Shown here: positions 2,029 through 28,949 of the stretch, in pieces | Layout: every line of letters starts with the position of its first letter | How positions within the stretch are numbered: the stretch's first letter is position 1 | Notes under the pieces: generated by a model | The model's database searches: none | Seen by the model: only the letters and a program-made list of their open reading frames with translations | Told to the model about the DNA's origin: nothing | Made by a program: the position numbers and the translations under genes | Source: Welwitschia mirabilis | Lineage: Eukaryota | DNA: 36,409 nt | NCBI GenBank assembly: GCA_051453625.1 | Contig: JBOZIK010000001.1 | Span: 35,928,984-35,965,392, forward strand | Direction of reading: 5' to 3'

Positions 2029-2701
2029 TTCTGGTTCACTCCCATCTATATTAGTATGTCGTATCTATGCATATATTTGTGATTGACATGATTTGATAAA
2101 GGATGTAACATTTGCATAAATATGCATGGCAATAATAAGCTCCTTAATTTTTTGGGTATTGCACTATGTAGATGAAAAATTGATTATCAATGAGAAATAT
2201 TCCATTCGATAGAAAATTGAAATATAGTTCTTTGACACTTAGCTCATTAAGACAAAGATGATGTTCTTAAGAATATGATATATCCTAATGTCAACAATGA
2301 CTTTTTTGAGCTTCTAGAAAAGTGAAAATAATAATATGCCTTAAGATTAATAGAGAGTTCCTCTTATAGGTAATTCCTAAAATATTTTTAAATGTTGAAT
2401 ATCTTAGTACTCTTATTATAGCATTTAAGTGATTTACACTTATTACATGAAGATATTGTAATGGAACTTTAACAACATAAGAAATATCATGTTTATTATT
2501 GTTTAAATAAATTAGATTACTAATAATTCAATTAGGTTTTACTTCATTAGTTGATTTTAGATCTTCACTAATGGATAATTTTTTAGTTTGTTCTAGAGAA
2601 CTTACAACTTATTTAGTATTCTTCAAATGAAATTTCTAAGTTATATCTTAAATGTACTTATTTTAAGTTAAAAATATTTTATTATTTTTCAACATAACTT
2701 C

Positions 2702-3178
2702 TATATTATTTAAACTAAGTTTTATATTATTTAACCTAAGTTAGTTTTATATTATTTTTTAACCTAAGTTAGTTTTATATTATTTAAACTAAGTTAGTTT
2801 TTTATATTATTTAAACTAAGTTAGTTTTATATTATTTAAACTAAGTTTTATATTCTTTAAACTAAGTTAGTTTTATATTATTTAAACTAAGTTAGTTTTA
2901 TTTATTATTTAAACTAAGTTAGTTTTATATTATTTAAACTAAGTTAGTTTTTTATATTATTTAAACTAAGTTAGTTTTTTATATTATTTAAACTAAGTTA
3001 GTTTTATATTATTTAAACTAAGTTACTTTTTTATATTATTTAAACTAAGTTAGTTTTATATTATTTAAACTAAGTTAGTTTTTTATATATTTAAACTAAG
3101 ATTTATATTATTTAAACTAAGTTAGTTTTTTATATTATTTAAACTAAGTTAGTTTTTTATATTATTTAAACTAAGTTA
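2702..3178. repeat. Minisatellite A, ~26-28 bp unit TATATTATTTAAACTAAGTTAGTTTT(TT)
   Basis: Tandem units visible directly, varying mainly in T-run length. Each unit contains the inverted repeat AAACTAA-G-TTAGTTT. Runs into an N gap. Confidence 0.95.
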
Positions 3179-3278
3179 NNNNNNNNNNNNNNNNNNNNNN
3201 NNNNNNNNNNNNNNNNNNNNNNNNNNNNNNNNNNNNNNNNNNNNNNNNNNNNNNNNNNNNNNNNNNNNNNNNNNNNNN

Positions 3279-3603
3279 TAAAATTTATATTTTTTTTATA
3301 TTATTAAACTTTATAGTTTTTTTAATATTATTAAACTTTATAGTTTTTTTAATATTATTAAACTTTATATTATTAAACTTTATAGTTTTTTTATATTATT
3401 AAACTTTATAGTTTTTTTTGATATTATTAAACTTTATAGTTTTTTTTATATCATTAAAGTTTATAGTTTTTTTTAATATTATTAAACTTTATAGTTTTTT
3501 ATATTATTAAACTTTATAGTTTTTTTAATATTATTAAACTTTATAATTTTTTTATATTATTAAACTTTATATTTTTTTATATTATTAAACTTTATAGTTT
3601 TTT
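3279..3603. repeat. Minisatellite B, ~26-28 bp unit ATATTATTAAACTTTATAGTTTTTT(T)
   Basis: Tandem units visible directly, each with AAACT-TTAT-AGTTT. The last unit abuts the ribozyme module. A single unit recurs at ~5930-5956. Confidence 0.95.
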
Positions 3604-3637
3604 CTATATAAAGATGGGCCTTTAGACTGCTTAAAGC

Positions 3638-3721: not shown

Positions 3722-4344
3722 ATTTGTATTGCTGCTCTGTAAGTTAATAGATTTTATGCAATACTTATGTTCCAATTGAATCTACTTTGCAGCTTTCTAA
3801 ATGAATCTGTCTTATAGTTTTTAAAGGCTATGTGTTTTCTAAGAACTTGTTTTTGAAGGCATTGAACTTCTTTCAAGTTTCTACCATTATTGTATACATA
3901 GCAATTTCTTTTTGGAAAAGCTTTTCGTGTTCCTGGAATTCTTAACGCCTGCTCCACCGAATGTTACTCTCATTTAACTTTGAAGAAACCCTGAACTCTA
4001 GAGCTTCTATTAGCTGGAGTTATGGCCTGCACTGCAAGCCAAGGCATAAATTAGCCATGATGAAAAGAAGCTAGCACCCGATTTCGAAGGATGGCTTTCC
4101 TCCATTTTCTCTCAGCTTTCTTGTGCAAAACGAACACGTTTGCTGTTGTTCTTGCTCCACCGTTTATACTAGGCAAATCTTCGCTTGACGATTTTCTCCG
4201 ATGGATTTTAGCTCTTATGGCCATCGCAAGTCTTTAGATTTTTCATTAGCAACTAAAGCCAGCAATCCAAAAACGCTACAGACATCTCAATCTGTCGCGT
4301 CTCTTCCTTTCAATGGAACAGTGAAGCGAATCGTATGCGCCACT

Positions 4345-4740
4345 CTAAAATGCATGCGACCACCAAAACCTCGCTTGTTCCAGGTCTCGTTTGATACCAC
4401 GCCATCCTTTTTCAACGCTTCTCGTCTGTGTGTCGATTCTGATGCTTCTTGACCACGCGTCGTCCTTCATGCACCTCGTGCCTCAAGCCTTTTTCCGGTG
4501 ATGCATACTTTTGTGTGCCTTTCACGCTGTGTCTATAGACGCCTCTATCATCCCTGTGGACGCGCTTCTCTAGCGTGTCCCTTCGTGCCCAAAGCCGCCG
4601 CTAGCTGCCTGGCTTTTGTGCATCTCCTCATTGGTTTTAGGCTCTTAGTCGGTTGCAGCCTCATTCACGCAGCAAGCTTCGGTGGCAGCTTCACTCAGGC
4701 AGTAAGCTTCGGTGGCAGCATTATTTTCGTAGCAATCTTC
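4345..4740 (-). pseudogene. Decayed ORF of unknown function with 3x10-aa repeat (EDCYENNAAT/EAYCLSEAAT/EACCVNEAAT)
   Basis: My translation gives a long frame broken by isolated stops. A 30-bp repeat at 4649-4740 preserves the frame. No family recognised. Confidence 0.35.
4649..4740. repeat. 30-bp tandem repeat, 3 copies
   Basis: TCGGT(T/G)GCAGC... units start at 4649, 4679 and 4709. Confidence 0.85.
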
Positions 4741-5123
4741 ACGTGCCACCGCACTTCACATGTTGCCACTACGCTCCTCATGTCGTCATCGACTCATTTT
4801 TTGCTGCGTCTGGATTCTCTGCCGCTAACTCTTTGGCTTCTCAGCTGTACTTGGCTTCTATGCCGCCAAATCGCGCCTTCTCTGCTGTCAATTCTTCTGA
4901 CACTGGTTAACACCAGCGTTTCTTGACGCCAACTGCCAGATTTATATCCTGACAGCAGCTGACCAGCACTTCACATTTCTTAGCGCTTCGCATTTCCAGC
5001 ATTTCACATTATCAGATTTCTCCATGGAGTCTCACTGCAGTCGTCTGATAACACGCATAAATCAAACTGCAGTCATCGAACCACAAAAAAGATCTGTCGG
5101 AAATCAATTCGCCTCCAAGCTGG

Positions 5124-5360
5124 TCATTATTTCTTTTAGCTGCACTTCCTCTAGTTTCTGACACTATCTGCCATGCCGCTGACAGCGTATGCCGGCCTCT
5201 GACCAGCGCAATCCATAGGACATGAGACACATCTATGAACTTCATTATTTCTTTTAGCTGCACTTCCTCCTGTTTCTGACAACGTCTGCCATGCCGCTGA
5301 TAGCATATGCCAGCCTCTGACCAGTGCAATCCACAGGACATAAGACACGTCTATGAACTT
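5124..5360. repeat. 118-bp tandem duplication, with a more diverged partial third copy at ~5467-5545
   Basis: TCATTATTTCTTTTAGCTGCACTTCCTC... starts at 5124 and again at 5242. Confidence 0.9.
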
Positions 5361-5752
5361 CCTTAAATTTAACTCTATGACACGCCTTATTTTCTCCATC
5401 GACTTTATTCTCTCCATTGGCTGCCTTAATTTTCTCCATCGGCTGCGTTTTGATTACCTACTAAAAACGTCTGCCATCTGCAACAGCATTTGCCAGCCTT
5501 ACATAGCACAGCACTGTGGACCCAATACGTCTTTGATACTTCATCTCCCCTCCAGCCGTCATCTCATTTTCAAATGTTAAGCTGTTTGGGGATGCATGTA
5601 TTCTTATGGAAAAAAGCTCACAAATTTAACTTTTGGCCTCTTCCTCTCTGTCGCAGCCGTTTTTCCGGTCACCCAATATTATTTGTCTTTGCTACAATGC
5701 TTCATTTCTGAAGTGGGACCCCTCTTGTTCTCATCCAAAACAGGAGGGCATT

Positions 5753-5770
5753 CCTAAACCCTAAACCCTA
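5753..5770 (+). repeat. Short plant telomeric tract or telo-box (CCTAAACCCTAAACCCTA)
   Basis: About 2.5 copies of the Arabidopsis-type C-strand repeat CCCTAAA. Confidence 0.7.
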
Positions 5771-5892
5771 TACTCTCTTTCTTAAGATCCCATGCTATCT
5801 TTTCACTTGGCAAAGACATATTTTTATTTGTTGGTGACTTGGATTGTATGGAGCATCTAAAATCATTGGAACATTTAGATCCCATGTGCTCA

Positions 5893-5923
5893 CTCCCATG
5901 CTTCCTCTCTTAAAGCATGGGAG
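5893..5923. other. Perfect 11-bp inverted repeat (hairpin)
   Basis: CTCCCATGCTT-9 nt-AAGCATGGGAG, ending just before the second ribozyme module. Confidence 0.8.
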
Positions 5924-5990
5924 AATGTTTTATATTATTAAAATTTATAGTTTTTTCTATATAAAGATGGGCCTTTAGACTACTTAAAGC

Positions 5991-6029
5991 AGACCTTTTT
6001 GGATTACTTCGGCAGCCCTTTTGGGATCT
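5991..6029 (+). ncRNA. ENE-like stem-loop, copy 2 (decayed)
   Basis: Same as 3638-3676, with G>A differences at 6003 and 6006 that weaken the upper stem. Confidence 0.4.
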
Positions 6030-21762: not shown

Positions 21763-21907
21763 GTAGGCCGAGGATTTTTCTTCTTGCTCCGCGGCTTCTG
21801 GTCATTCATTTGCAGCGCCATGGATTTCTTGTAGAAGAGCATTCATTCGCTTTTCAAGATGTTATGTGTCACATATTTGATTGAATGTAAGTAGGTTTGC
21901 TGTTGTC

Positions 21908-22063
21908 ATGGCGACGGGACCTTATGCTAGGGTTTTGTACGGCAATCCATCCCTCGTTGATCAGCAGGAAGGTGTTGGAGAAAACGAAGAATGTTGTCCA
22001 GATTCTGCCGATTTTGTTAGCCCCGGCTCTTCGATTGCTTCCAACCTTTCTAACGGCGATTCC
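21908..22063 (+). CDS. COR27: Coding exon 1 of COR27/COR28-like gene (MATGPYARVLYGNPSLVDQQ...SNGDS)
   Basis: ATG in good context (gtcATGGCG), 52 codons, followed by a GTAAGT donor at 22064. Phase 0 matches the acceptor TTTTATTCAG ending at 22871. Confidence 0.7.
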
Positions 22064-22871
22064 GTAAGTATTTAGGTTAAATTCCAGTGGCCGTTTTGCC
22101 TGCAATCTTAGTCACCACTTTGAGAGTATCTGAATCAATCTGATTTACGTTTTTGTCTCGTTTTCGAGTCTAATTTGTCCGTAGTTTTGATTTGCCGTTC
22201 CTTAGCTATTGTCTTTCTATTTTCGGTGTCTAATTTGATATGTATAAGTTTGCTATTTCCGGTCTAGAAGATTTTAGCAGGAAATGTGTAGCTTTTAGCT
22301 CCTCGGAAGCATGAAATAGAAAATAGACATAATTTAACGATCTTTATGAGCGTGAGCGTTGCACAGAATCCTTACGCATTTTTCTTTTCGTAGTTTATGT
22401 AAACTCCTTCTGTGCAAGCAAACAGTTATTCAGTTTTGTAAGATTTTTACGTACGTGTTGCCTCTCGCTCTTTCGGTTATTTTTAAGATACGATTTAGCA
22501 TAGAATGGAGAAGGAATCAGATGAAATGGAGAATTATGCCTGCGATCGCTGACTCTCATTTCAGCTTGCAGCCAAAGGGTTGCTAAGTATGAATCATATA
22601 ATCACAGTTAAGTTCACGTTCATTTTAATAATCCATTGGGGGAGGTACTGTTTTTGAGTATCGTAGGAACAAATGCCCTGTAAAGCAACCGCTTCACGTT
22701 AGAGATTTTTTCTTATCTGTTTTGCCATCTGTTTGTGTTTGAGCAAGACCTGTTTACTTAATTGTATGCTCTGTGGCATGCATTTGTGAAAAGAGGTTTC
22801 ATTATATCTTGCCGTTTACCTGTGTACCATATGAAATGATATTAATGATGGTGTTTTTCCATTTTATTCAG

Positions 22872-23431
22872 CTCCCAAGGATAGTGGATTCAGTAGATAC
22901 AGGATGGACAGATGAGATGCATTCTTTATATCTAAACACAATGGAAGCAACGTTTGCCAGGAAATTGTATGATAAGGAGTATTGTGCCATGGATTTGTGT
23001 GGACAGTCAGCTATTGAGCATGAGGATCAAGATCCAGAATCTGCAGAGTCGAAGCTTAGTTGTCCTTCACCTTTTGGGTTTAAGATTTGGCAGAAAGGAA
23101 ACTATCAGAGGTCACCAGATTTTAAGATGACTCAGAAAAAACCTCCAGTAACATTTTACAGAGCCCATGGGTGCAACATTTCAGAGGCCTTACAGACAAG
23201 TCTATAATGATTGAAGATGTAAAGCAATCTTCGATGTTTAAAACCCAAGCTGTTGACAACGCTGTAAAAAAAAACTCATTTGCAATTGAAGATCATGGAG
23301 TTTAGCCTTGTAGATTGCAATCAAATTATGATATCAATTATCGAAATATGGAGCTGGATCTTGTTGAAAAGAAGTGCACTTGGGCTGTAGCACACCCTGA
23401 AGGGAATGGTAATGATAAATCTTTGACAGAA
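22872..23431 (+). pseudogene. COR27: COR27/COR28-like (cold-regulated protein 27/28 family) coding region, disrupted
   Basis: Family motifs TGWTDEMHSLYLNTMEATFARKLY and FGFKIWQKG. After a frameshift near the A6 run at 23136-23141 comes ILQSPWVQHFR. In-frame TAG at 23303-23305. Homology to the downstream copy stops at 23431. Confidence 0.8.
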
Positions 23432-23594
23432 TCGTGTTTGCTCCGTAATCTGAAACAGCAATTCCATGAAGTCCCAAAGATGAACCCTCCGCCAGAGTCT
23501 TCAAAGAGCCAAAACAACGATGCCAGTGGTAATAAAGGACATGTTTATCATTACAAAGGGTAATAAAGGACATGTTTCACAATTCCTGTGTGAT

Positions 23595-23771
23595 CTTTAT
23601 GAATCACCTGGTTCTGCGGTAGCAATCCATAGTCGTAATGATGTGGCCACCCCCGGTCGGAACCAATGCCAGCATATTAGCTACGGTGGCATACATACCG
23701 GACGCCAGTAGTAACGTTGTCTCTGCTCCTTTCAAGGCGCTGATTTTATCTTCAGCAACTAGCGCAGTAGG
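23595..23771 (-). pseudogene. CGS1: Cystathionine gamma-synthase gene fragment
   Basis: My translation PTALVAEDKISALKGAETTLLLASGMYATVANMLALVPTGGGHIITTMDCYRRTR*FIK matches plant CGS (as recalled: NPTTVVLEDKISALEGAESTLVMASGM...LVPAGGHIVTTTDCYRKTRIF). Stop at 23606-23604. No flanking CGS sequence. Confidence 0.9.
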
Positions 23772-23879
23772 GATACTCCATTGAATTCTTGTTGGTGTTG
23801 AAAGCAGTCCAGATCAAATTGACGATCACATCTTTGCATTGTGCATCCGCCTTCAGCAGATATAGTTTCCAGGGAGAGG

Positions 23880-24160
23880 GGACGTATCAGAGCACAAACA
23901 GAGATAGCGAGCAGACGGTGAACCAAAATCACAACAAACAAGACCAAAACGAAAGCAAGTCACAGCGCTCTCACATCAGAAGCAAGAACGGCGCGTCACA
24001 GAGAGAACGCAGGGACGACCCAACGCCATCACAACGGCGCACAACAGTGAACGACGAACGGCGAGCAGGCAGACCACATCAGAACGCACGCAGGTCAAAC
24101 GCAGAAGGCAAGAACAGCACCGCACAGCAGCGCACGGTAGCAAAAGCACGCCATTAGACA
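23880..24160 (-). other. 5'-UTR-like, CpG-rich, pyrimidine-skewed segment oriented on the minus strand
   Basis: The + strand is strongly A-rich and T-poor, so the minus strand is T-rich like plant leaders. It lies upstream of the CGS fragment in the same orientation. Confidence 0.4.
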
Positions 24161-25617
24161 CCAGGTTCTATTGAAAATTTTCTTTGTATTATCTACAATC
24201 GGTTGTCATTGTAGAAACATTTTTTTCTGGGTTTTATTTTATAGTTTTTAAAATAAAATGTCTCCTTTTAATGTTAGCACATTAAAATAAAAACAGCAAA
24301 ACAATTCCTTATTTTGTACCTAAAATTTTCTTAGAAACTCGAATAGAATTTTCATACTTTACATTTCGGGAATTAAAATAAATACTCCTTTAAAAGATTT
24401 AGAGATATAGAGAATTTTAGATTTTTTTTTAAAGTAAAGTAATTAAAAAAAAATTTTCTTTTATCCTATTGTTATCGCATTCTCTCCCCTAGATTTTATT
24501 TTATATATAACCTTTCAAAGACCCTAACGTTGCGTCTTAGAAGGACTTTTGAACATATCTTGGTAATTTAATTCAAAGAGATTTGATTTTCAAAGTTAGT
24601 CTTTATTTTTCCAAGAGTATTTATAAATACCAGGAATTAAATTTTAATTCATCTTTTATCTTAACTCAATTGTATGCGTCTTAAATCCACATTAAATTTT
24701 GAAGAATTTTGAAATTCCCAAAAATGTCATCCATCTTAGTTAGAAGTGAATTGTATTAATGTATTAGTCAATGCTAATATTCATGTCAAGGGCTTAATAT
24801 TAAACAACATATAACATTGCATAAAAAATTGTCGTAATAATCATATGTGTGCCTTACAGTTTTATGAAATTTCTCAGTTGATACATTGAGCATTGTATAG
24901 TGAATATCTTCATTGAAAAATACTTTGCGATGAAATATGAAAATTTTAGTACATATTCTTTATAATTTTCTTGAGGAGCCTTATTGAGAAACTTGAATCT
25001 TTAGTTATGTAAATTACCTCGAAAATGCATTGAATGATAATTTGTGAATATAATTTACTTGAATTATTTTTGGTGGATAGGTATGAATTGGTAATTTATT
25101 TTCATGCATTAGTTGTAAATTTTTTTTGGAGATTAATAATTTATTTGTGAATATAAGATATTGGTAATATGCCTTAAATTTAATATTAATATCCATTTAT
25201 TAATAATGGAAATCTCAAGAAAAGGCCATGTGTTTCCCTCCTCCTCTTAAAATTTTTTAAAAACTAAGGCTTGATAAAGGGCATTAATAATTGTTTAAAT
25301 ACTATAAAATTTATATTTGTGAAGGGAATTAGTCAAAGGTCTAAACTTGGAAAATTTTAATAAAATTTAAATGGTTTGATGCACACAGTGTGACTTGAGC
25401 CACTGACCACTCGAATTACATTAACAGTGTTACAATTATATCATCAATTAATTAATGGTAATAAACTCATATGTTGAGCTGTGTTGCATAGATTTGATCA
25501 GCAGACCATGCACATGAAATGGGAACCGTTTAGCATTGTCAGACAAGGTGGTAATGTTTTTGGATAATTATAATTGAACGTATGCTTGGCTGAAGATTGA
25601 ACTAACATTCGAAAATG

Positions 25618-26218
25618 TTAGACAAGCTGGGCTGAACTGCATCCTGCGTGGAGGGAGGCCGACGCGTTCTTAAACGGATGCGTTATGAAATGGATTGCAT
25701 CCCCTTGCCTGCTCAGCCTGTCTCCTGCTGAATCCTGCCGCTGCTTGTTAGTTGAGGAAACCACACTGCTGGCTGGCTGCCTTGTCTGCAATCCAATGGC
25801 ACCTCTGGTGACCTCCCAAGGCCTGACCCGGCTCAAAAACCTTGAGGCATATCGAGCACTGATGGCCTAATTTGGTGCCCTCATTCTTGTCCTTTTTCTG
25901 GCTCTCATATCATCTCCATAGTCGTTGCCTTCATCATCATAATAATGAGATTCATAGTTTCCATGATTGAGCTTGCCAGAAAGCATGAGCAGCAAATTTG
26001 CAGTAGCTCTGTCATCGCCGACCATGGCGTTGGCCTCGGATGGGTGACCGAATTTCCGCTTTCTGCGATTTTTCAAGCTTCGGTTTCGAGTCACAGACCA
26101 GTTGTCAAAGAGAGGGCTCTTGGGCCTGGCCTCAACAGTGGCAATCAAGGGCACATGCCCGTTTCCAGTTGCAGTTGCAGCAGCAGTAGAGTCGGCTTTC
26201 GAGACGATGAAGGAGGAT
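25618..26218 (-). pseudogene. Q-type C2H2 zinc-finger (ZAT-like) gene, 3' part, frameshifted
   Basis: [24 protein letters not shown] at 25864-25793. Upstream L-box-like DDRATANLLLMLSG and basic RRKRK are in another frame. Frameshifts near 25895 and at a 4-bp GGCT duplication (25771-25778). No DLN EAR motif seen. 5' part lost in the N gap. Confidence 0.85.
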
Positions 26219-26318
26219 NNNNNNNNNNNNNNNNNNNNNNNNNNNNNNNNNNNNNNNNNNNNNNNNNNNNNNNNNNNNNNNNNNNNNNNNNNNNNNNNNN
26301 NNNNNNNNNNNNNNNNNN

Positions 26319-26922
26319 TATCGATTATCGAAATATGGAGCTGGATCTTGTTGAAAAGAAGTGCACTTGGGCTGTAGCACACCCTGGTACGCTCCTATAT
26401 TTTAACCAAAGGCAATCTGAATCTCTCTTCTTGAGAAATATCACTTTATTGCATCCTCATAGTCTTGTCCTCAATGCAGAAGGGAATGGTGATGATAAAT
26501 CTTTGACAGAAAAAGCGCTTGCCCAGAATCTATCAAGGTCCCATGACGTTTTTGAAGAAATTTCAAATAGAAAAAGGATAATAAAAAAGAGGAAAGCACA
26601 TCTTCGACTTCGCAGTAGTTCACCCAAGAATCAGGTATATGTTTTCATGGCAAGTGATGTCTCCTGCTAGTAATACACAGCTAAAAGTGTCTCAACTAAA
26701 CCTTGCATCTGACATAGGCTTTATATGTGGAAATTATTTCACCGTTTATCGAGGAAACAGAGTGCGAGAGAGGCAAGAGTTCCCAATTCCATCTGCGGAG
26801 TTGATTCCTCACATGGCTGTTTGCTGGATTCGAACAATTCTATCGATTGCTTTCATGAAACCAATGGAACTCATTTAGCAACTGCCAAGGGTAACAGACT
26901 CTCAGTGAAAGGTTTGTGGTAA
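26319..26922 (+). pseudogene. COR27: Intron-containing 3' part of the COR27/28-like gene (exons ..26386, 26480-26634, probably 26761-26922)
   Basis: Matches 23332-23431 with 2 mismatches but has a GT..CAG intron at 26387-26479. Continues EKALAQNL...SSSPKNQ to a donor GTATAT at 26635. A possible last exon SAREARVPN...KGLW* has a weak acceptor. Confidence 0.65.
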
Positions 26923-27424
26923 TTGGCCGTTGTGAAGAATTTCTGTACTAATTGTCAACAAGCTGTGAGGCAGTAAAGGTTCATAATGAATCAAATTCAA
27001 AGGCAAGATTGTTCAAATTACAGGACGTTGTTACTTCTTTACTCGGCCGCGGAAGGAGGGTTCCTTCCAATACCTCTCGCGCACTGTAAATCGCCGTGTT
27101 TTCTTTTTTATTTTTGCTTTTAGCAATGAAATCCATGTAGTATATCCCTTCTATCAGCATTACGCATCAGCAACTGAACGTGAGTCAATAGTTTTTCACA
27201 CTGGGTTTACTTTGAATGCATTCTCATGGTTGCTTCTTCCTTTCAATTGTTGTTATTTATTGGAACTCTGAGTGATAATGTATGCTTCCCAATTATGTGT
27301 GGATGTGATCCCTTGAGTTTCTAGTTTTAGGAATTGCCATTTTCAGATGTCTACAGGTTACTTACTGTTGTTTTGTCAATTGCTTCTACCAATAATGAGT
27401 TCCATGCAGTACGTTTATAAACAG

Positions 27425-27672: not shown

Positions 27673-28104
27673 TGTCTAGAAAAGGGAATTAGAAGAAATA
27701 AGAACACAACATGATTTTATTATGGTTTAGCCCCTCTCTTGACCTCTATGACCCAGGTTCTTGTTATACAAGCAACAAATTAAAATGAAAAACAACATAG
27801 CAACATGTTTTCTCTCAAATATTAATCAAAGCTTGTCTCGAAATCAAAGGTCTTACTTTTTTACGCCTCTAGAATTGACCCACCAAATTAAAGTTTATGA
27901 AATGCCATAGATGTTAATAAATGCTGAAGATCACCTTTATTAATAGATGCTAAAAACACCAAATATCACGAAATTAACTCTCAATCAAATGGAAGTTAAT
28001 CACAATCCATTGAAATCCTGACAAATATCACCATTATATTCCAAACACATCTTGCAAGGGCAAGTATCTCTTATTAAAAGGATGCCCTTGTGTCATTCCT
28101 CCTG
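27673..28104 (-). mobile_element. Probable 3' LTR (27673-28095) with polypurine tract
   Basis: TG...CA termini at 27673 and 28095. Minus strand CAGGAGGAA directly precedes TGACAC. Marks the abrupt end of the genic island. Confidence 0.4.
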
Positions 28105-28949
28105 ACGTGGAAAGAAAAGTATAATTCTAAATCAAATTTTGGGATTTCATCTTCCATAAAAATTAACTCCTATTTTGTAATACACCTCTCTTGGACGTTA
28201 TATCCATTATAAAATTTAGCAAGAAACTCAAAATACTAATCTCTTTGAGTCTTTATTTCCCTAATGTTAAGCACATCAACCAAATTTCCTTATTATCTCT
28301 TATCTACTATAAACATAATATTTAAAATATTTCCATGATATGGGACAGATCCACAACAATTAAAAAACAAAGAATTGTCACCCTTAAATCTTTGATACTC
28401 TCCTGCTATCTGCATTAGCTGAAATCTTTTTGGTTATCTCCAATAGACCAACTTTTGTATGTTTCAATTCTAAATAAACCTGTTTTGGGGCTCTCTGGTT
28501 TACCGTGGCTAAATTAAAAGGATGCCCTTATGTCATTCCTTCCAACTTGGAAAGAAAATTGTTTGTTCTAAATCAAAATTTGGGATTTCGTTCTCCAAAA
28601 AAATAAACTCCTATTTTGTAATACACCTCTTATGGACGTTATCTTCATTATAAAATTTAACAAAAAAACTCACAATCCTAATCTCTTTGAGTCTTTGTTT
28701 CCCTGACATTAAGCACATCAACACAATATCCTCATTATCTGTTATCTACTATAACTATAATATCTCAAATACCTCCATGATATAAGGATAGATCTATAAT
28801 AATTATTAAAAAAAAATGGTCATCCTTAAATCTTTGATACTCTCACACCATGTGCATTAGTTGAAATCTCTTTAGTTATCTTTAATAGACTGACTTTTAA
28901 ATGTTTCAATTTTAAATAAACCTATTTTGGAGCTCTCTTATTTACCATG
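28073..28949 (-). repeat. 440-bp tandem duplication of a retrotransposon 3' end (PPT and LTR start duplicated)
   Basis: ATTAAAAGGATGCCCTT.TGTCATTCCT starts at 28073 and 28513, and the copies are collinear throughout. Minus-strand FQVGRND resembles the FQEGGND end of CRM-type Gypsy pol. Confidence 0.8.

Follow-up and report, generated by a model that had tools for sequence, protein, structure and literature searches.

An intron-free COR27-like segment in a Welwitschia mirabilis scaffold is most likely a processed pseudogene mis-joined to its parent gene

The stretch of DNA analysed here (the window, 36,409 nucleotides) carries one COR27-like segment twice, once with an intron and once without it. 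The intron-free copy is most likely an ordinary processed pseudogene that was mis-joined to its parent, and not a case of intron loss caught in the act. We consider it probable that this copy belongs to a small family of chimeric processed pseudogenes, one member of which was threaded by the assembler into the true gene through 80 identical bases. The main value of the case is one of caution: a "semi-processed gene" or an "intron loss mid-way" in a gapped draft can be an assembly artefact, which arises if a single-copy gene has in common with its higher-copy processed pseudogenes a sequence that exceeds the word size of the assembler.

Results

Four runs were compared with the window: DNA contigs from two samples other than the assembled individual, one of them labelled as another organism (X1 and X5), and RNA data in the form of contigs (X14) and raw reads (X21). 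The designation of X1, X5 and X14 as DNA or RNA was a tool's guess, with which the coverage patterns agree. Of X1 and X5, about 57 in 100 of the data were covered, and the contigs drop minor variants.

Direct comparison of positions 23332-23431 with 26319-26386 plus 26480-26511 gave 98 identical bases out of 100, the upstream copy having A and the downstream copy G at both mismatches (23336 and 23411). A 93-nt GT..AG intron, intron 2 of the gene (26387-26479, + strand), is exactly absent from the upstream copy at 23399/23400, where the first 32 nt of exon 3 (23400-23431, +) are joined straight to exon 2. An independent repeat search recovered the same two pieces as families D11 (68 nt, 99%) and D16 (33 nt, 97%). 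A duplicate with so exact an absence of the intron is far beyond chance, and the intron-free piece is of RNA-derived, spliced origin. The observation of an earlier note on this DNA, that one segment occurs twice with two mismatches and with the intron cleanly gone from one copy, is thus confirmed. In DNA, a single X5 contig (record 18, 334 nt) crosses 23399/23400 as well as 23431; in RNA, 22 X21 reads show the splice of 26387-26479, as does X14 record 11.

The downstream copy belongs to an expressed gene, of which the 5' part lies upstream of the intron-free segment. The name COR27-like was given to this gene in the earlier note and is kept here as a provisional label. Homologue searches, an atlas look-up and Pfam produced no named COR27 relative, the hits being unnamed transcriptome and Logan proteins; the atlas clusters of the protein are annotated as "hypothetical protein" and assigned to Streptophyta, and the Pfam scan placed the protein in no family. 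No motif sequence for the COR27/COR28 family was found in the part of PMC12943921 that was available. The coding part of exon 1 (21908-22063, +) begins with an ATG at 21908 and was matched over 51 of 53 residues in a tblastn search with the protein P0001; 21899-22063 recurs without a difference in X14 record 9, which is an RNA-like contig. It is followed by intron 1 (22064-22871, +; 808 nt, GT..AG), spliced in 43 X21 RNA reads and in an X14 contig, and present at single-copy depth in an X5 DNA contig (record 16, 875 nt, 6.6x) that agrees with 22027-22901 without a difference. At four sites of the 5'UTR (21811, 21819, 21856 and 21862) all X21 RNA reads differ from the window, and the X1 and X5 DNA has the window's letters; no X14 contig lies on 21787-21898. 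In this 5' region the window may thus represent an allele or locus not quite identical to the expressed one.

The rest of the gene starts at 26319 with the expressed version of exon 2, of which the final 68 nt are present (26319-26386, +); these match P0001 and are the first bases of a contig. At the position that corresponds to 23336 this copy has the G found in 50 of 50 X21 reads. Intron 2 is present in DNA (X1 record 7, 152 nt, 4x, identical to 26357-26508) and spliced in RNA, and exon 3 (26480-26634, +) was recovered by tblastn of P0001 and by X14 record 11, which shows 0 differences over 26479-26635. Intron 3 (26635-26760, +) has two acceptors, exon 4 starting at 26718 or 26761, and is partly retained: 83 nt are skipped in 6 X21 reads and 126 nt in 10, both joints also occur in X14, and the intron is unspliced in X14 record 13 and read into by the C-terminus of P0001. 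Against the downstream contig the mRNA (P0001; X14 record 11, 685 nt) shows 0 differences.

The exon 2 that stands upstream (22872-23399, +), which we call the A-version, is decayed. Compared with the RNA contig X14 record 11 it carries 23 substitutions and one inserted A in 527 nt (4.4%); its reading frame shifts near 23130-23139 and meets a TAG stop at 23303-23305. All 23 substitutions fall within 22952-23336, and the first 80 nt (22872-22951) equal the expressed mRNA exactly. The changes are biased from GC to AT. Non-synonymous changes affect 19 of the 21 altered codons and turn one of these into a stop; against an expected fraction of 0.76 this excess is not significant (p 0.09), and hence we make no claim about selection. 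The A-version is also silent. At the 22 listed sites of exon 2 that differ, nearly all X21 reads have the letter that the window lacks (35/35, 54/54 and 51/51, for example); the window letter was met in 14 of 56 reads at 23085 and in single reads at 3 sites. The two RNA data sets essentially lack the A-version letters. High-depth X1 contigs contain neither the frameshift nor the stop, and therefore not every member of the family is visibly dead.

Homology between the two copies ends sharply at 23431. When 23432-23527 was aligned to 26512-26631 the z score was 0.05, and 174 of 300 shuffles scored as high. What follows instead is a set of fragments of a MAM33-family (PF02330) mRNA (23432-23600, +) in the frame of the COR27-like part. 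Three pieces of the protein P0008, itself matching PF02330 with an E value of 3.5e-21, align collinearly to 23429-23600 (residues 48-68, 108-121 and 129-149) and look spliced, residues 70-107 being skipped at 23493/23494. At the switch lies the motif AGAA (23428-23431, +), which is common to both parental mRNAs: the COR27-like match extends to 23431, and X21 reads of the MAM33-type mRNA fit from 23428 onward with a loose end before it. The chance of at least 4 shared letters at the switch is about 0.016 with equal base frequencies and higher in A-rich sequence. The fusion is present in genomic DNA. X5 record 18 (19.4x, over 23362-23600) holds the intronless junction and the MAM33 switch in one contig, and X1 record 4 (14.1x) spans the switch over 23412-23579. 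Past 23600 X5 record 18 no longer matches the window; the other family members therefore differ from it beyond that point. That 23432-23527 might be exon 3 of a COR27-like paralogue, as hinted by a faint similarity to P0002 in tblastn and by a matching exon phase, was rejected, the nucleotide alignment to the downstream exon 3 being no better than shuffles and the stretch matching P0008. The earlier note had taken the sequence after the intron-free segment as an inserted block. Since the MAM33 fragments are fused on at 23431, that block starts as part of the same chimeric retro-copy.

Read depth in DNA sets this copy apart from the gene. The joint of exon 1 to exon 2 without intron 1 was covered at 28.6x in X5 and 17.8x in X1, and the A-version of exon 2 at 27.2x and 16.4x. 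The contigs of the promoter, of intron 1 and of the downstream copy had 5.96-6.6x in X5 and 3.8-4.2x in X1, which gives a ratio of multi-copy to single-copy depth of 4.1-4.6. The depth of the A-version is thus that of the spliced joint; spliced and intron-linked versions together would have summed to 35.2x (X5) and 21.8x (X1). The same MAM33 junction was crossed in both samples at about 3-3.5 times single-copy depth, all copies taken together. Contigs break off in the 80 bases, common to both versions, with which exon 2 opens, and none of the independent contigs links intron 1 to A-version letters. The statement of the earlier note that the upstream copy keeps its promoter and intron 1 therefore reflects the order in the draft contig and is matched by no independent contig. 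Among the DNA contigs listed for X1 and X5, from the roughly 57 in 100 of each run that was read, none carries the expressed version of exon 2 (22952-23331). An X1 joint from 24910 to 26930 was dismissed as unreliable, one of its sides being 24 letters long and lying in a repeat. Because of its 23 substitutions and one indel, its frameshift and stop, the near-absence of its letters from RNA reads, its switch to MAM33 and its depth of about 4-4.6 times the single-copy value, the upstream copy is something other than an exon of the gene itself.

Six unassigned bases (23601-23606) after the MAM33-like piece there is an antisense fragment of a cystathionine gamma-synthase-type (CGS; Cys/Met PLP enzyme) gene (23607-23813, -; PF01053, E 1.9e-8). 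X21 mRNA reads fit 23607-23759 and hang loose at either border, 91 reads at one and 150 at the other; the DNA depth is about 4x. The idea that these ends are CGS exon borders and prove a cDNA origin was dropped: by eye, a weaker similarity goes on past 23759, and the GT beside 23607 sits in the reverse complement of the MAM33-like piece. A T-poor stretch of low complexity (23850-24150; A 115, C 85, G 79, T 22) then leads up to an AT-rich, unclassified high-copy repeat (24031-25339) with a depth of 42-478x in X1 and X5. Farther on lies the C-terminal part of a C2H2 zinc-finger gene (25748-26218, -; zf-C2H2_6 at 25751-25909, E 8e-10), in two ORFs of different frames. This fragment, from which the best-fitting X14 contig departs by 11 differences and 4 gaps, has a frame break and is cut by a 100-N scaffold gap (26219-26318). 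The downstream COR27-like copy begins right after this gap. No contig listed in the 4 runs bridges it, and the doubt about this join expressed in the earlier note was justified. The window contains 8 N runs. Since another 100-N gap (3179-3278) lies inside a tandem-repeat array, RNA-guided scaffolding was dropped as the source of the gap, and 100 N is a generic placeholder in this scaffold.

Discussion

In the reading that we prefer, the true gene is single-copy and expressed, with its promoter, exon 1 and intron 1 at about 21.6-22.9 kb and its remainder from 26319 onward. Beside it there would be a pseudogene family of about four chimeric RNA-derived copies, each combining the last part of exon 1 with exon 2 and the opening 32 nt of exon 3, intronless and fused through AGAA to MAM33-family fragments in the orientation and frame of the COR27-like part. 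Such copies may have arisen by template switching of a reverse transcriptase between co-packaged mRNAs, in an LTR-retrotransposon-mediated retroposition like that of Bs1, followed by secondary copying; the copy in the window has decayed by frameshift, stop and GC-to-AT-biased changes and is silent. The draft short-read assembly would have passed from gene to pseudogene within 22872-22951 and continued into the pseudogene's surroundings, that is, the CGS fragment, the repeats and the zinc-finger gene fragment, and the scaffolder would have put the gene's real 3' contig behind the 100-N gap. Template switch and mis-join are both the most likely course of events, as judged from read sets of individuals other than the assembled one. 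The antisense CGS fragment counts against this account, since a simple template switch does not give it.

Should the scaffold be essentially right, a retro-copy would, in the assembled genotype, have taken the place of the parental gene's exon 2 and of the first part of its exon 3 through ectopic recombination or gene conversion, leaving a semi-processed, disrupted allele with intron 1 kept, intron 2 lost and foreign sequence ahead of the original 3' half. We regard this as unlikely, even though the window itself shows that order and the X1 and X5 DNA contigs did not reveal the expressed exon 2. Exon 1 and intron 1 are almost the same as in the RNA and DNA of the other samples, next to an exon 2 that is 4.4% off, and such a mosaic is expected from recombination as readily as from a mis-join. 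However, the agreement between A-version and spliced joint (27.2x against 28.6x in X5, 16.4x against 17.8x in X1) leaves no depth for an A-version linked to intron 1, and a crossover with a copy elsewhere would put the 5' half and the 3' half on different products, not at a distance of 2.9 kb from each other. Moreover, the N-terminal part that the zinc-finger gene lacks would have to fit into the gap, so that its 100 N can only be a placeholder, and the crossing zone of 80 identical bases is the classic setting of a k-mer assembler error. That the scaffold order is real in the narrower sense of a natural semi-processed allele, produced by recombination of retro-copy and parent within exon 2 and segregating against an intact allele expressed in other genotypes, seems to us distinctly unlikely. 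Were this minority reading true, the window would hold a rare natural intermediate of RNA-mediated intron loss, the semi-processed allele being the physical intermediate of retrocopy- or cDNA-mediated loss.

The earlier note had proposed that a fresh cDNA of the same gene was recombined into its own locus and caught mid-way, by reverse transcriptase (RT)-mediated intron loss or RNA-templated break repair. The spliced RNA origin of the segment stands, and both the removal of the intron exactly at the splice sites and the retention of an intron 5' of the lost one speak for that proposal. The own-locus event does not stand and has become extremely improbable, given a copy that is 23 substitutions and one indel away from the mRNA in 527 nt, is broken by frameshift and stop, runs on into MAM33-type mRNA fragments, occurs at about four times single-copy depth and is common to two other samples, one of them labelled as another organism. 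A DNA-level paralogue that lost intron 2 independently, as a tandem pair or as two haplotypes placed side by side, would account for only 2 mismatches in 100 bases and for the intron 1 seen in the window; it is very unlikely in the face of the end of homology at 23431 (z 0.05) with MAM33-type sequence beyond, of DNA contigs without intron 1 at the same raised depth, and of an intron 1 whose depth (6.6x against about 6x in the flanks) is not that of two intron-bearing copies. Contamination of the assembly input with cDNA or RNA-seq reads could produce spliced junctions and exon-sized mosaics in a draft contig. We find it scarcely credible, as A-version letters are essentially missing from both RNA sets and abundant in two independent genomic-type sets which also cover promoter, intron and repeats.

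If, as we prefer to think, the scaffold joins a pseudogene to its parent, gene models on it would be wrong, with a frameshifted exon 2 and a false 2.9-kb "intron". A by-product of the analysis is a small family of multi-gene chimeric retro-copies in a plant, COR27-like and MAM33-like in frame, in about four copies. The family is common to two labelled organisms and fits the template-switch model of maize Bs1 and of animals.

Comparison with known systems

In the Fink model, RT-mediated intron loss proceeds by recombination of a cDNA with the parental locus. Derr et al. (1991) are cited in PMC5131818. The window resembles such semi-processed retrogenes in that a precisely intron-free segment adjoins a retained 5' intron. 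It differs in that the segment is not the locus's own (4.4% off and chimeric), that the parental intron persists at 26387-26479 and that the link to intron 1 comes from a draft contig. Collapsed paralogues are known to give chimeric contigs in short-read draft assemblies. Compared with these, the mis-join in the window is an inferred one. The likeness lies in a path switch within sequence that a single-copy gene has in common, letter for letter, with a relative of higher copy number, and in a contig break at a repeat with the true continuation behind an N gap of nominal size.

Chimeric retrogenes of plants were reportedly surveyed in rice by Wang et al. in 2006, a study cited in PMC5131818. 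With the ordinary plant processed pseudogenes and chimeric retrogenes of the rice surveys (among them PMC6881317) the window copy shares decay, silence and the exact absence of introns, of intron 2 at 23399/23400 and of intron 1 in DNA contigs of X1 (17.8x) and X5 (28.6x); we ascribe the presence of intron 1 in the window to the join with the true gene. It also shares an expressed, intron-bearing parent (X1 record 7, 4x; 22 X21 junction reads; X14 record 11). What sets it apart is truncation at either end, fusion with a second mRNA and a copy number of about four. Signs of the LINE type were absent: there is no A-tract at either end of the block (the COR27-like part ends 32 nt into exon 3, the MAM33-like part at 23600), and no direct repeats flank it.

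The remaining comparison is with LTR-mediated chimeric retrocopies, represented in plants by maize Bs1. Beside the block, the searches revealed no poly(A) tail and no target-site duplication, nor any sequence of an LTR, a reverse transcriptase or an integrase; long direct repeats of the LTR type were not found either. A Pfam scan of 28 of the 40 listed ORFs, all 28 of at least 70 aa and outside the locus, gave no match; the other 12 lie within 21.5-25.9 kb, where 3 overlapping stretches had been scanned separately. Within this scope no LTR or retrotransposon sequence of the kind that would flank an LTR-mediated retrocopy came to light, although an unclassified high-copy repeat lies at 24031-25339 and the join to the gene hides where the block begins on its left. 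Bs1 differs in being expressed, whereas no transcription of the window copy was seen and an antisense CGS fragment follows its block. According to the available part of PMC5131818, the hallmarks of LTR-mediated retroposition are partial mRNAs, multi-gene chimeras, microsimilarity at the switch points and secondary copies, and Bs1 itself occurs in 1-5 copies with the same switch points. In these respects the window copy is alike, to judge from the parts seen of PMC5131818 and PMC13317346: it consists of spliced partial mRNAs, at least two of them, fused in one orientation (COR27-like to 23431 and then MAM33-like, + strand), with microsimilarity at the switch (AGAA, 23428-23431) and probably a few copies that have this switch point in common.

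A spliced duplicate of a COR27-like gene

Comparing the window with itself, we found that 23332-23431 matches 26319-26386 joined to 26480-26511 at 98 of 100 bases, the only mismatches being at 23336 and 23411. The 93 nt absent from the upstream copy (26387-26479) begin with GT and end with AG, and both pieces of the duplicate were also recovered independently by a repeat finder (families D11 and D16). The duplicate lacking a 93-nt GT-AG intron in one copy is therefore as the earlier note described it. Intron 1 of the locus lies at 22064-22871 (808 nt, GT..AG). A run of exactly 100 Ns (26219-26318) directly precedes the downstream copy, which consequently starts at the first base of its contig; with 8 N runs in the window, the sequence is clearly a gapped draft. 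Elsewhere, a tandem array of units of about 25-27 nt (2662-3627) surrounds a 100-N gap (3179-3278), and doublets of 118 nt and about 441 nt occupy 5124-5359 and 28073-28949. A GC-rich island at 4000-6000 (0.41-0.49 versus about 0.2-0.3 around it) shows a strongly negative GC skew, and its ORFs had no Pfam match.

A homologue search with the 110-residue translation of upstream exon 2 returned 2 proteins among 21 candidates, both unnamed transcriptome ORFs. The COR27-like match, P0001 (291 aa), aligned collinearly along the window. It agreed with exon 1 at 51 of 53 residues and with upstream exon 2 in two blocks, at 82 of 89 and at 90 of 111 residues, the second block spanning a frame change, holding a stop codon and taking in an unrelated tail beyond 23431. 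On the downstream contig all 84 aligned residues matched, with a 31-residue gap that corresponds to intron 2. By a hand tally from the alignments rather than a program count, P0001 mismatches numbered 18/153 upstream versus 1/85 downstream (Fisher p = 0.002). The label 'COR27-like' came from the earlier note and presumably fits. Pfam, a second homologue search (7 matches, none named) and the atlas ('hypothetical protein', Streptophyta) gave no family name, so the label remains that note's own. The accessible part of PMC12943921 was of no help toward naming the family.

Transcripts derive from the downstream contig, not from upstream exon 2

Four sequencing runs of other samples were aligned to the window at a likeness of at least 90%. 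X1 and X5 carry the tool label 'DNA?', X5 with a different organism label, and X14 carries 'RNA?'. Together, X1 and X5 cover the promoter, intron 1 and intergenic repeats in contigs of up to 25 kb and thus behave as genomic DNA; X14, with both introns spliced out at about 155x and almost no cover between genes, behaves as RNA. The fourth run, X21, consists of raw oligo-dT RNA-seq reads, and about 25% of it was covered.

The mRNA contig of X14 (record 11; 685 nt, 158.8x) differs from 22872-23398 by 23 substitutions and one inserted A, which abolishes the frameshift of the window. Past 23398 the contig skips to 26479-26635, where it shows 0 differences. The intron-2 jump to the downstream contig also occurs in 22 X21 reads, and intron 1 is spliced out in 43. 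The junction-read check that the earlier note had proposed across 26387-26479 thus yielded spliced molecules in both runs. All 23 substitutions fall within 22952-23336; the window and the mRNA agree fully over 80 nt at the start of exon 2 and 62 nt at its end. At 22 listed exon 2 sites essentially every X21 read carries the non-window letter, apart from 14 of the 56 at 23085 and one each at 23062, 23205 and 23227. These reads indicate that the transcribed sequence is the downstream contig and not upstream exon 2. Fourteen X21 reads show a 73-nt non-canonical skip (AC..TT) inside exon 2 (23002-23076); one side of it is only 28 letters long, and the mapping of a related transcript probably accounts for it. 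In the expressed gene, intron 3 (26635-26760) has two acceptors, exon 4 starting at 26718 or 26761, and only the latter leads into a long open frame; this intron is partly retained, and the C-terminus of P0001 comes from the retained form.

Between mRNA and window, 19 of the 21 changed codons alter the residue, one of them to a stop, a non-synonymous excess that is not significant (p 0.09). Seventeen of the 23 substitutions (hand count) run from GC to AT in the direction from mRNA version to window version and, where the weaker relative P0002 was usable as outgroup, the window copy has the derived state at 6 of 7 residue differences, as read by eye from the alignments. Judged from the sequences, these changes of base, residue and codon are the decay expected of a pseudogene. 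High-depth X1 contigs with neither frameshift nor stop suggest that some related copies may keep an open frame, and the letters of such copies occurred in no RNA read. The RNA origin of upstream exon 2 makes the window uninformative on a further intron inside 'exon 2' of the real gene.

The spliced copy is fused in frame to a MAM33-family sequence

A search with the 85-residue ORF that crosses the junction retained 2 of 15 candidates, P0001 and P0008, the latter a MAM33-family protein (PF02330, E 3.5e-21). P0008 matches the + strand in the reading frame of the COR27-like ORF, and its match falls into three parts, residues 48-68 (23429-23491), 108-121 (23492-23533) and 129-149 (23541-23600). 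At 23493/23494, residues 70-107 (114 nt) are absent. The real MAM33-type mRNA is represented in X21 by reads that align to 23428-23493 and run loose at either end (12 and 20 reads), and AGAA is common to both parental mRNAs at the switch point (chance about 0.016). The sequence from 23432 onward had also been considered as a paralogous COR27-like exon; its alignment to downstream exon 3 was at shuffle level (z 0.05), P0008 matches there, and this candidate was rejected. The MAM33-like piece contains two copies of a 19-nt string, at 23528 and 23559, offset by 31 nt. The X1 and X5 DNA contigs hold 14 extra letters at 23528-23577, at this repeat, which points to a local rearrangement or an assembly stutter in the window copy.

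After the MAM33 piece and six unassigned bases comes part of a Cys/Met PLP enzyme, of cystathionine gamma-synthase (CGS) type, in antisense orientation (23607-23813; PF01053, E 1.9e-8). It is followed by a T-poor low-complexity stretch (23850-24150; A 115, C 85, G 79, T 22), multi-copy in the DNA runs and containing a 42-nt T-free run at 24096-24137, and by an unclassified AT-rich high-copy repeat (24031-25339; 42-478x in X1 and X5) that has numerous loose ends and internal joints. On the - strand, 25748-26218 holds a fragment of a C2H2 zinc-finger gene (zf-C2H2_6, E 8e-10) that is split between two frames and truncated at the N gap; X14 contains an expressed relative, with 11 differences and 4 gaps. 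The earlier note had placed an inserted block after 23431. Foreign sequence does follow there, but the MAM33 pieces continue in the COR27-like frame, so that the block begins as part of one chimeric spliced copy.

The junction and the fusion are repeated about four-fold in genomic DNA

Contigs of the promoter, intron 1 and downstream sequence had depths of 5.96x, 6.6x and 6.15x in X5; in X1 the promoter stood at 3.82x and downstream contigs at 4-4.24x, intron 1 being without cover. Junction-specific contigs joining exon 1 to exon 2 without intron 1 reached 28.6x in X5 and 17.8x in X1, and window-version exon 2 reached 27.2x (X5 record 17, 0 differences over 23140-23274) and 16.4x (X1 record 3, 2 differences over 22872-23043); the ratio of both to their flanks is 4.1-4.6. 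Contigs over the MAM33 switch stood at 19.4x (X5 record 18, 23362-23600) and 14.1x (X1 record 4, 23412-23579). The intronless junction at 23399/23400 is likewise spanned by X5 record 18. In both runs the window version has the depth of the spliced joint; spliced and intron-linked copies together would give 35.2x in X5 and 21.8x in X1. The total X5 depth at 23132-23139 is 34.7x, as expected of four spliced copies plus one intron-bearing gene. X1 additionally holds a third, more diverged copy free of intron 1 (record 2; 4.1x, 16 differences in 198 nt) and a contig of intron 2 with both flanks (record 7, 4x).

These contigs and depths establish the intronless junction and the fusion as real genomic DNA, repeated about four-fold, normally free of intron 1 as well, and common to two samples with different organism labels. 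The spliced junctions and the chimeric mRNA fusion bear out that the intron-free piece is RNA-derived. The further proposal, that a cDNA had recombined into its own locus and been caught mid-way, is not supported; the intron-free stretch is a multi-copy chimeric processed pseudogene.

An assembly mis-join or a semi-processed allele

Among the independent contigs of the runs examined, none links intron 1 to window-version letters. Intron-1 contigs (X5 record 16, X14 record 10) end at 22901, and X1 record 3, the exon 2 contig, begins at 22872, as expected where exon 2 copies share sequence; gene and pseudogenes are identical over 80 nt from the start of exon 2. With a word size below 80 nt, an assembler could cross from gene to pseudogene there, and the path would then continue through the flank of the pseudogene until it broke off in repeats. 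The gene's true 3' contig, beginning within exon 2, would be set after a gap of nominal length, and this gap would need to hold the missing zinc-finger part and probably much of expressed-version exon 2. The depth arithmetic and the single-copy depth of intron 1 favor such a mis-join over a real semi-processed allele in the assembled genotype, which we regard as rather unlikely; the reads that speak for the mis-join come from samples other than the assembled individual, and its combination with a pseudogene family is the reading we hold probable, with some reserve.

Expressed-version exon 2 (22952-23331) is absent among the listed X1 and X5 DNA contigs (about 57% of each run read), but contigs drop minority variants, and this is a hole rather than evidence. 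At four 5'UTR sites (21811, 21819, 21856 and 21862) no X21 RNA read (of 10 to 23 per site) matches the window, and the DNA of X1 and X5 does; X14 has no contig over 21787-21898, its exon 1 contig starting at 21899. These differences could be variation between genotypes, and they lower our confidence that the 5' end of the window is exactly the expressed allele.

Comparison with known chimeric retrocopies

The intron-free stretch is a member of a small family of chimeric processed pseudogenes, a known kind of structure. Hallmarks of template switching in LTR-retrotransposon-mediated retroposition are listed in the accessible parts of PMC5131818 and of a review, PMC13317346; the former gives maize Bs1 as a plant case, with 1-5 copies sharing common switch points. 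Our repeat search of the window found no LTR-like repeats. Pfam matched none of 28 scanned ORFs of at least 70 aa outside the locus, out of 40 listed; the other 12 all lie inside 21.5-25.9 kb, where a separate Pfam scan covered three stretches overlapping them. Agreement between X5 record 18 and the window stops at 23600, indicating that the window's member is cut off or rearranged there. Unlike the product of a simple template switch, the CGS piece is antisense. Like retrocopies with the listed hallmarks, the family consists of partial mRNAs from two parental genes in one orientation, with microsimilarity at the switch and, as in Bs1, several copies that appear to share one switch point.
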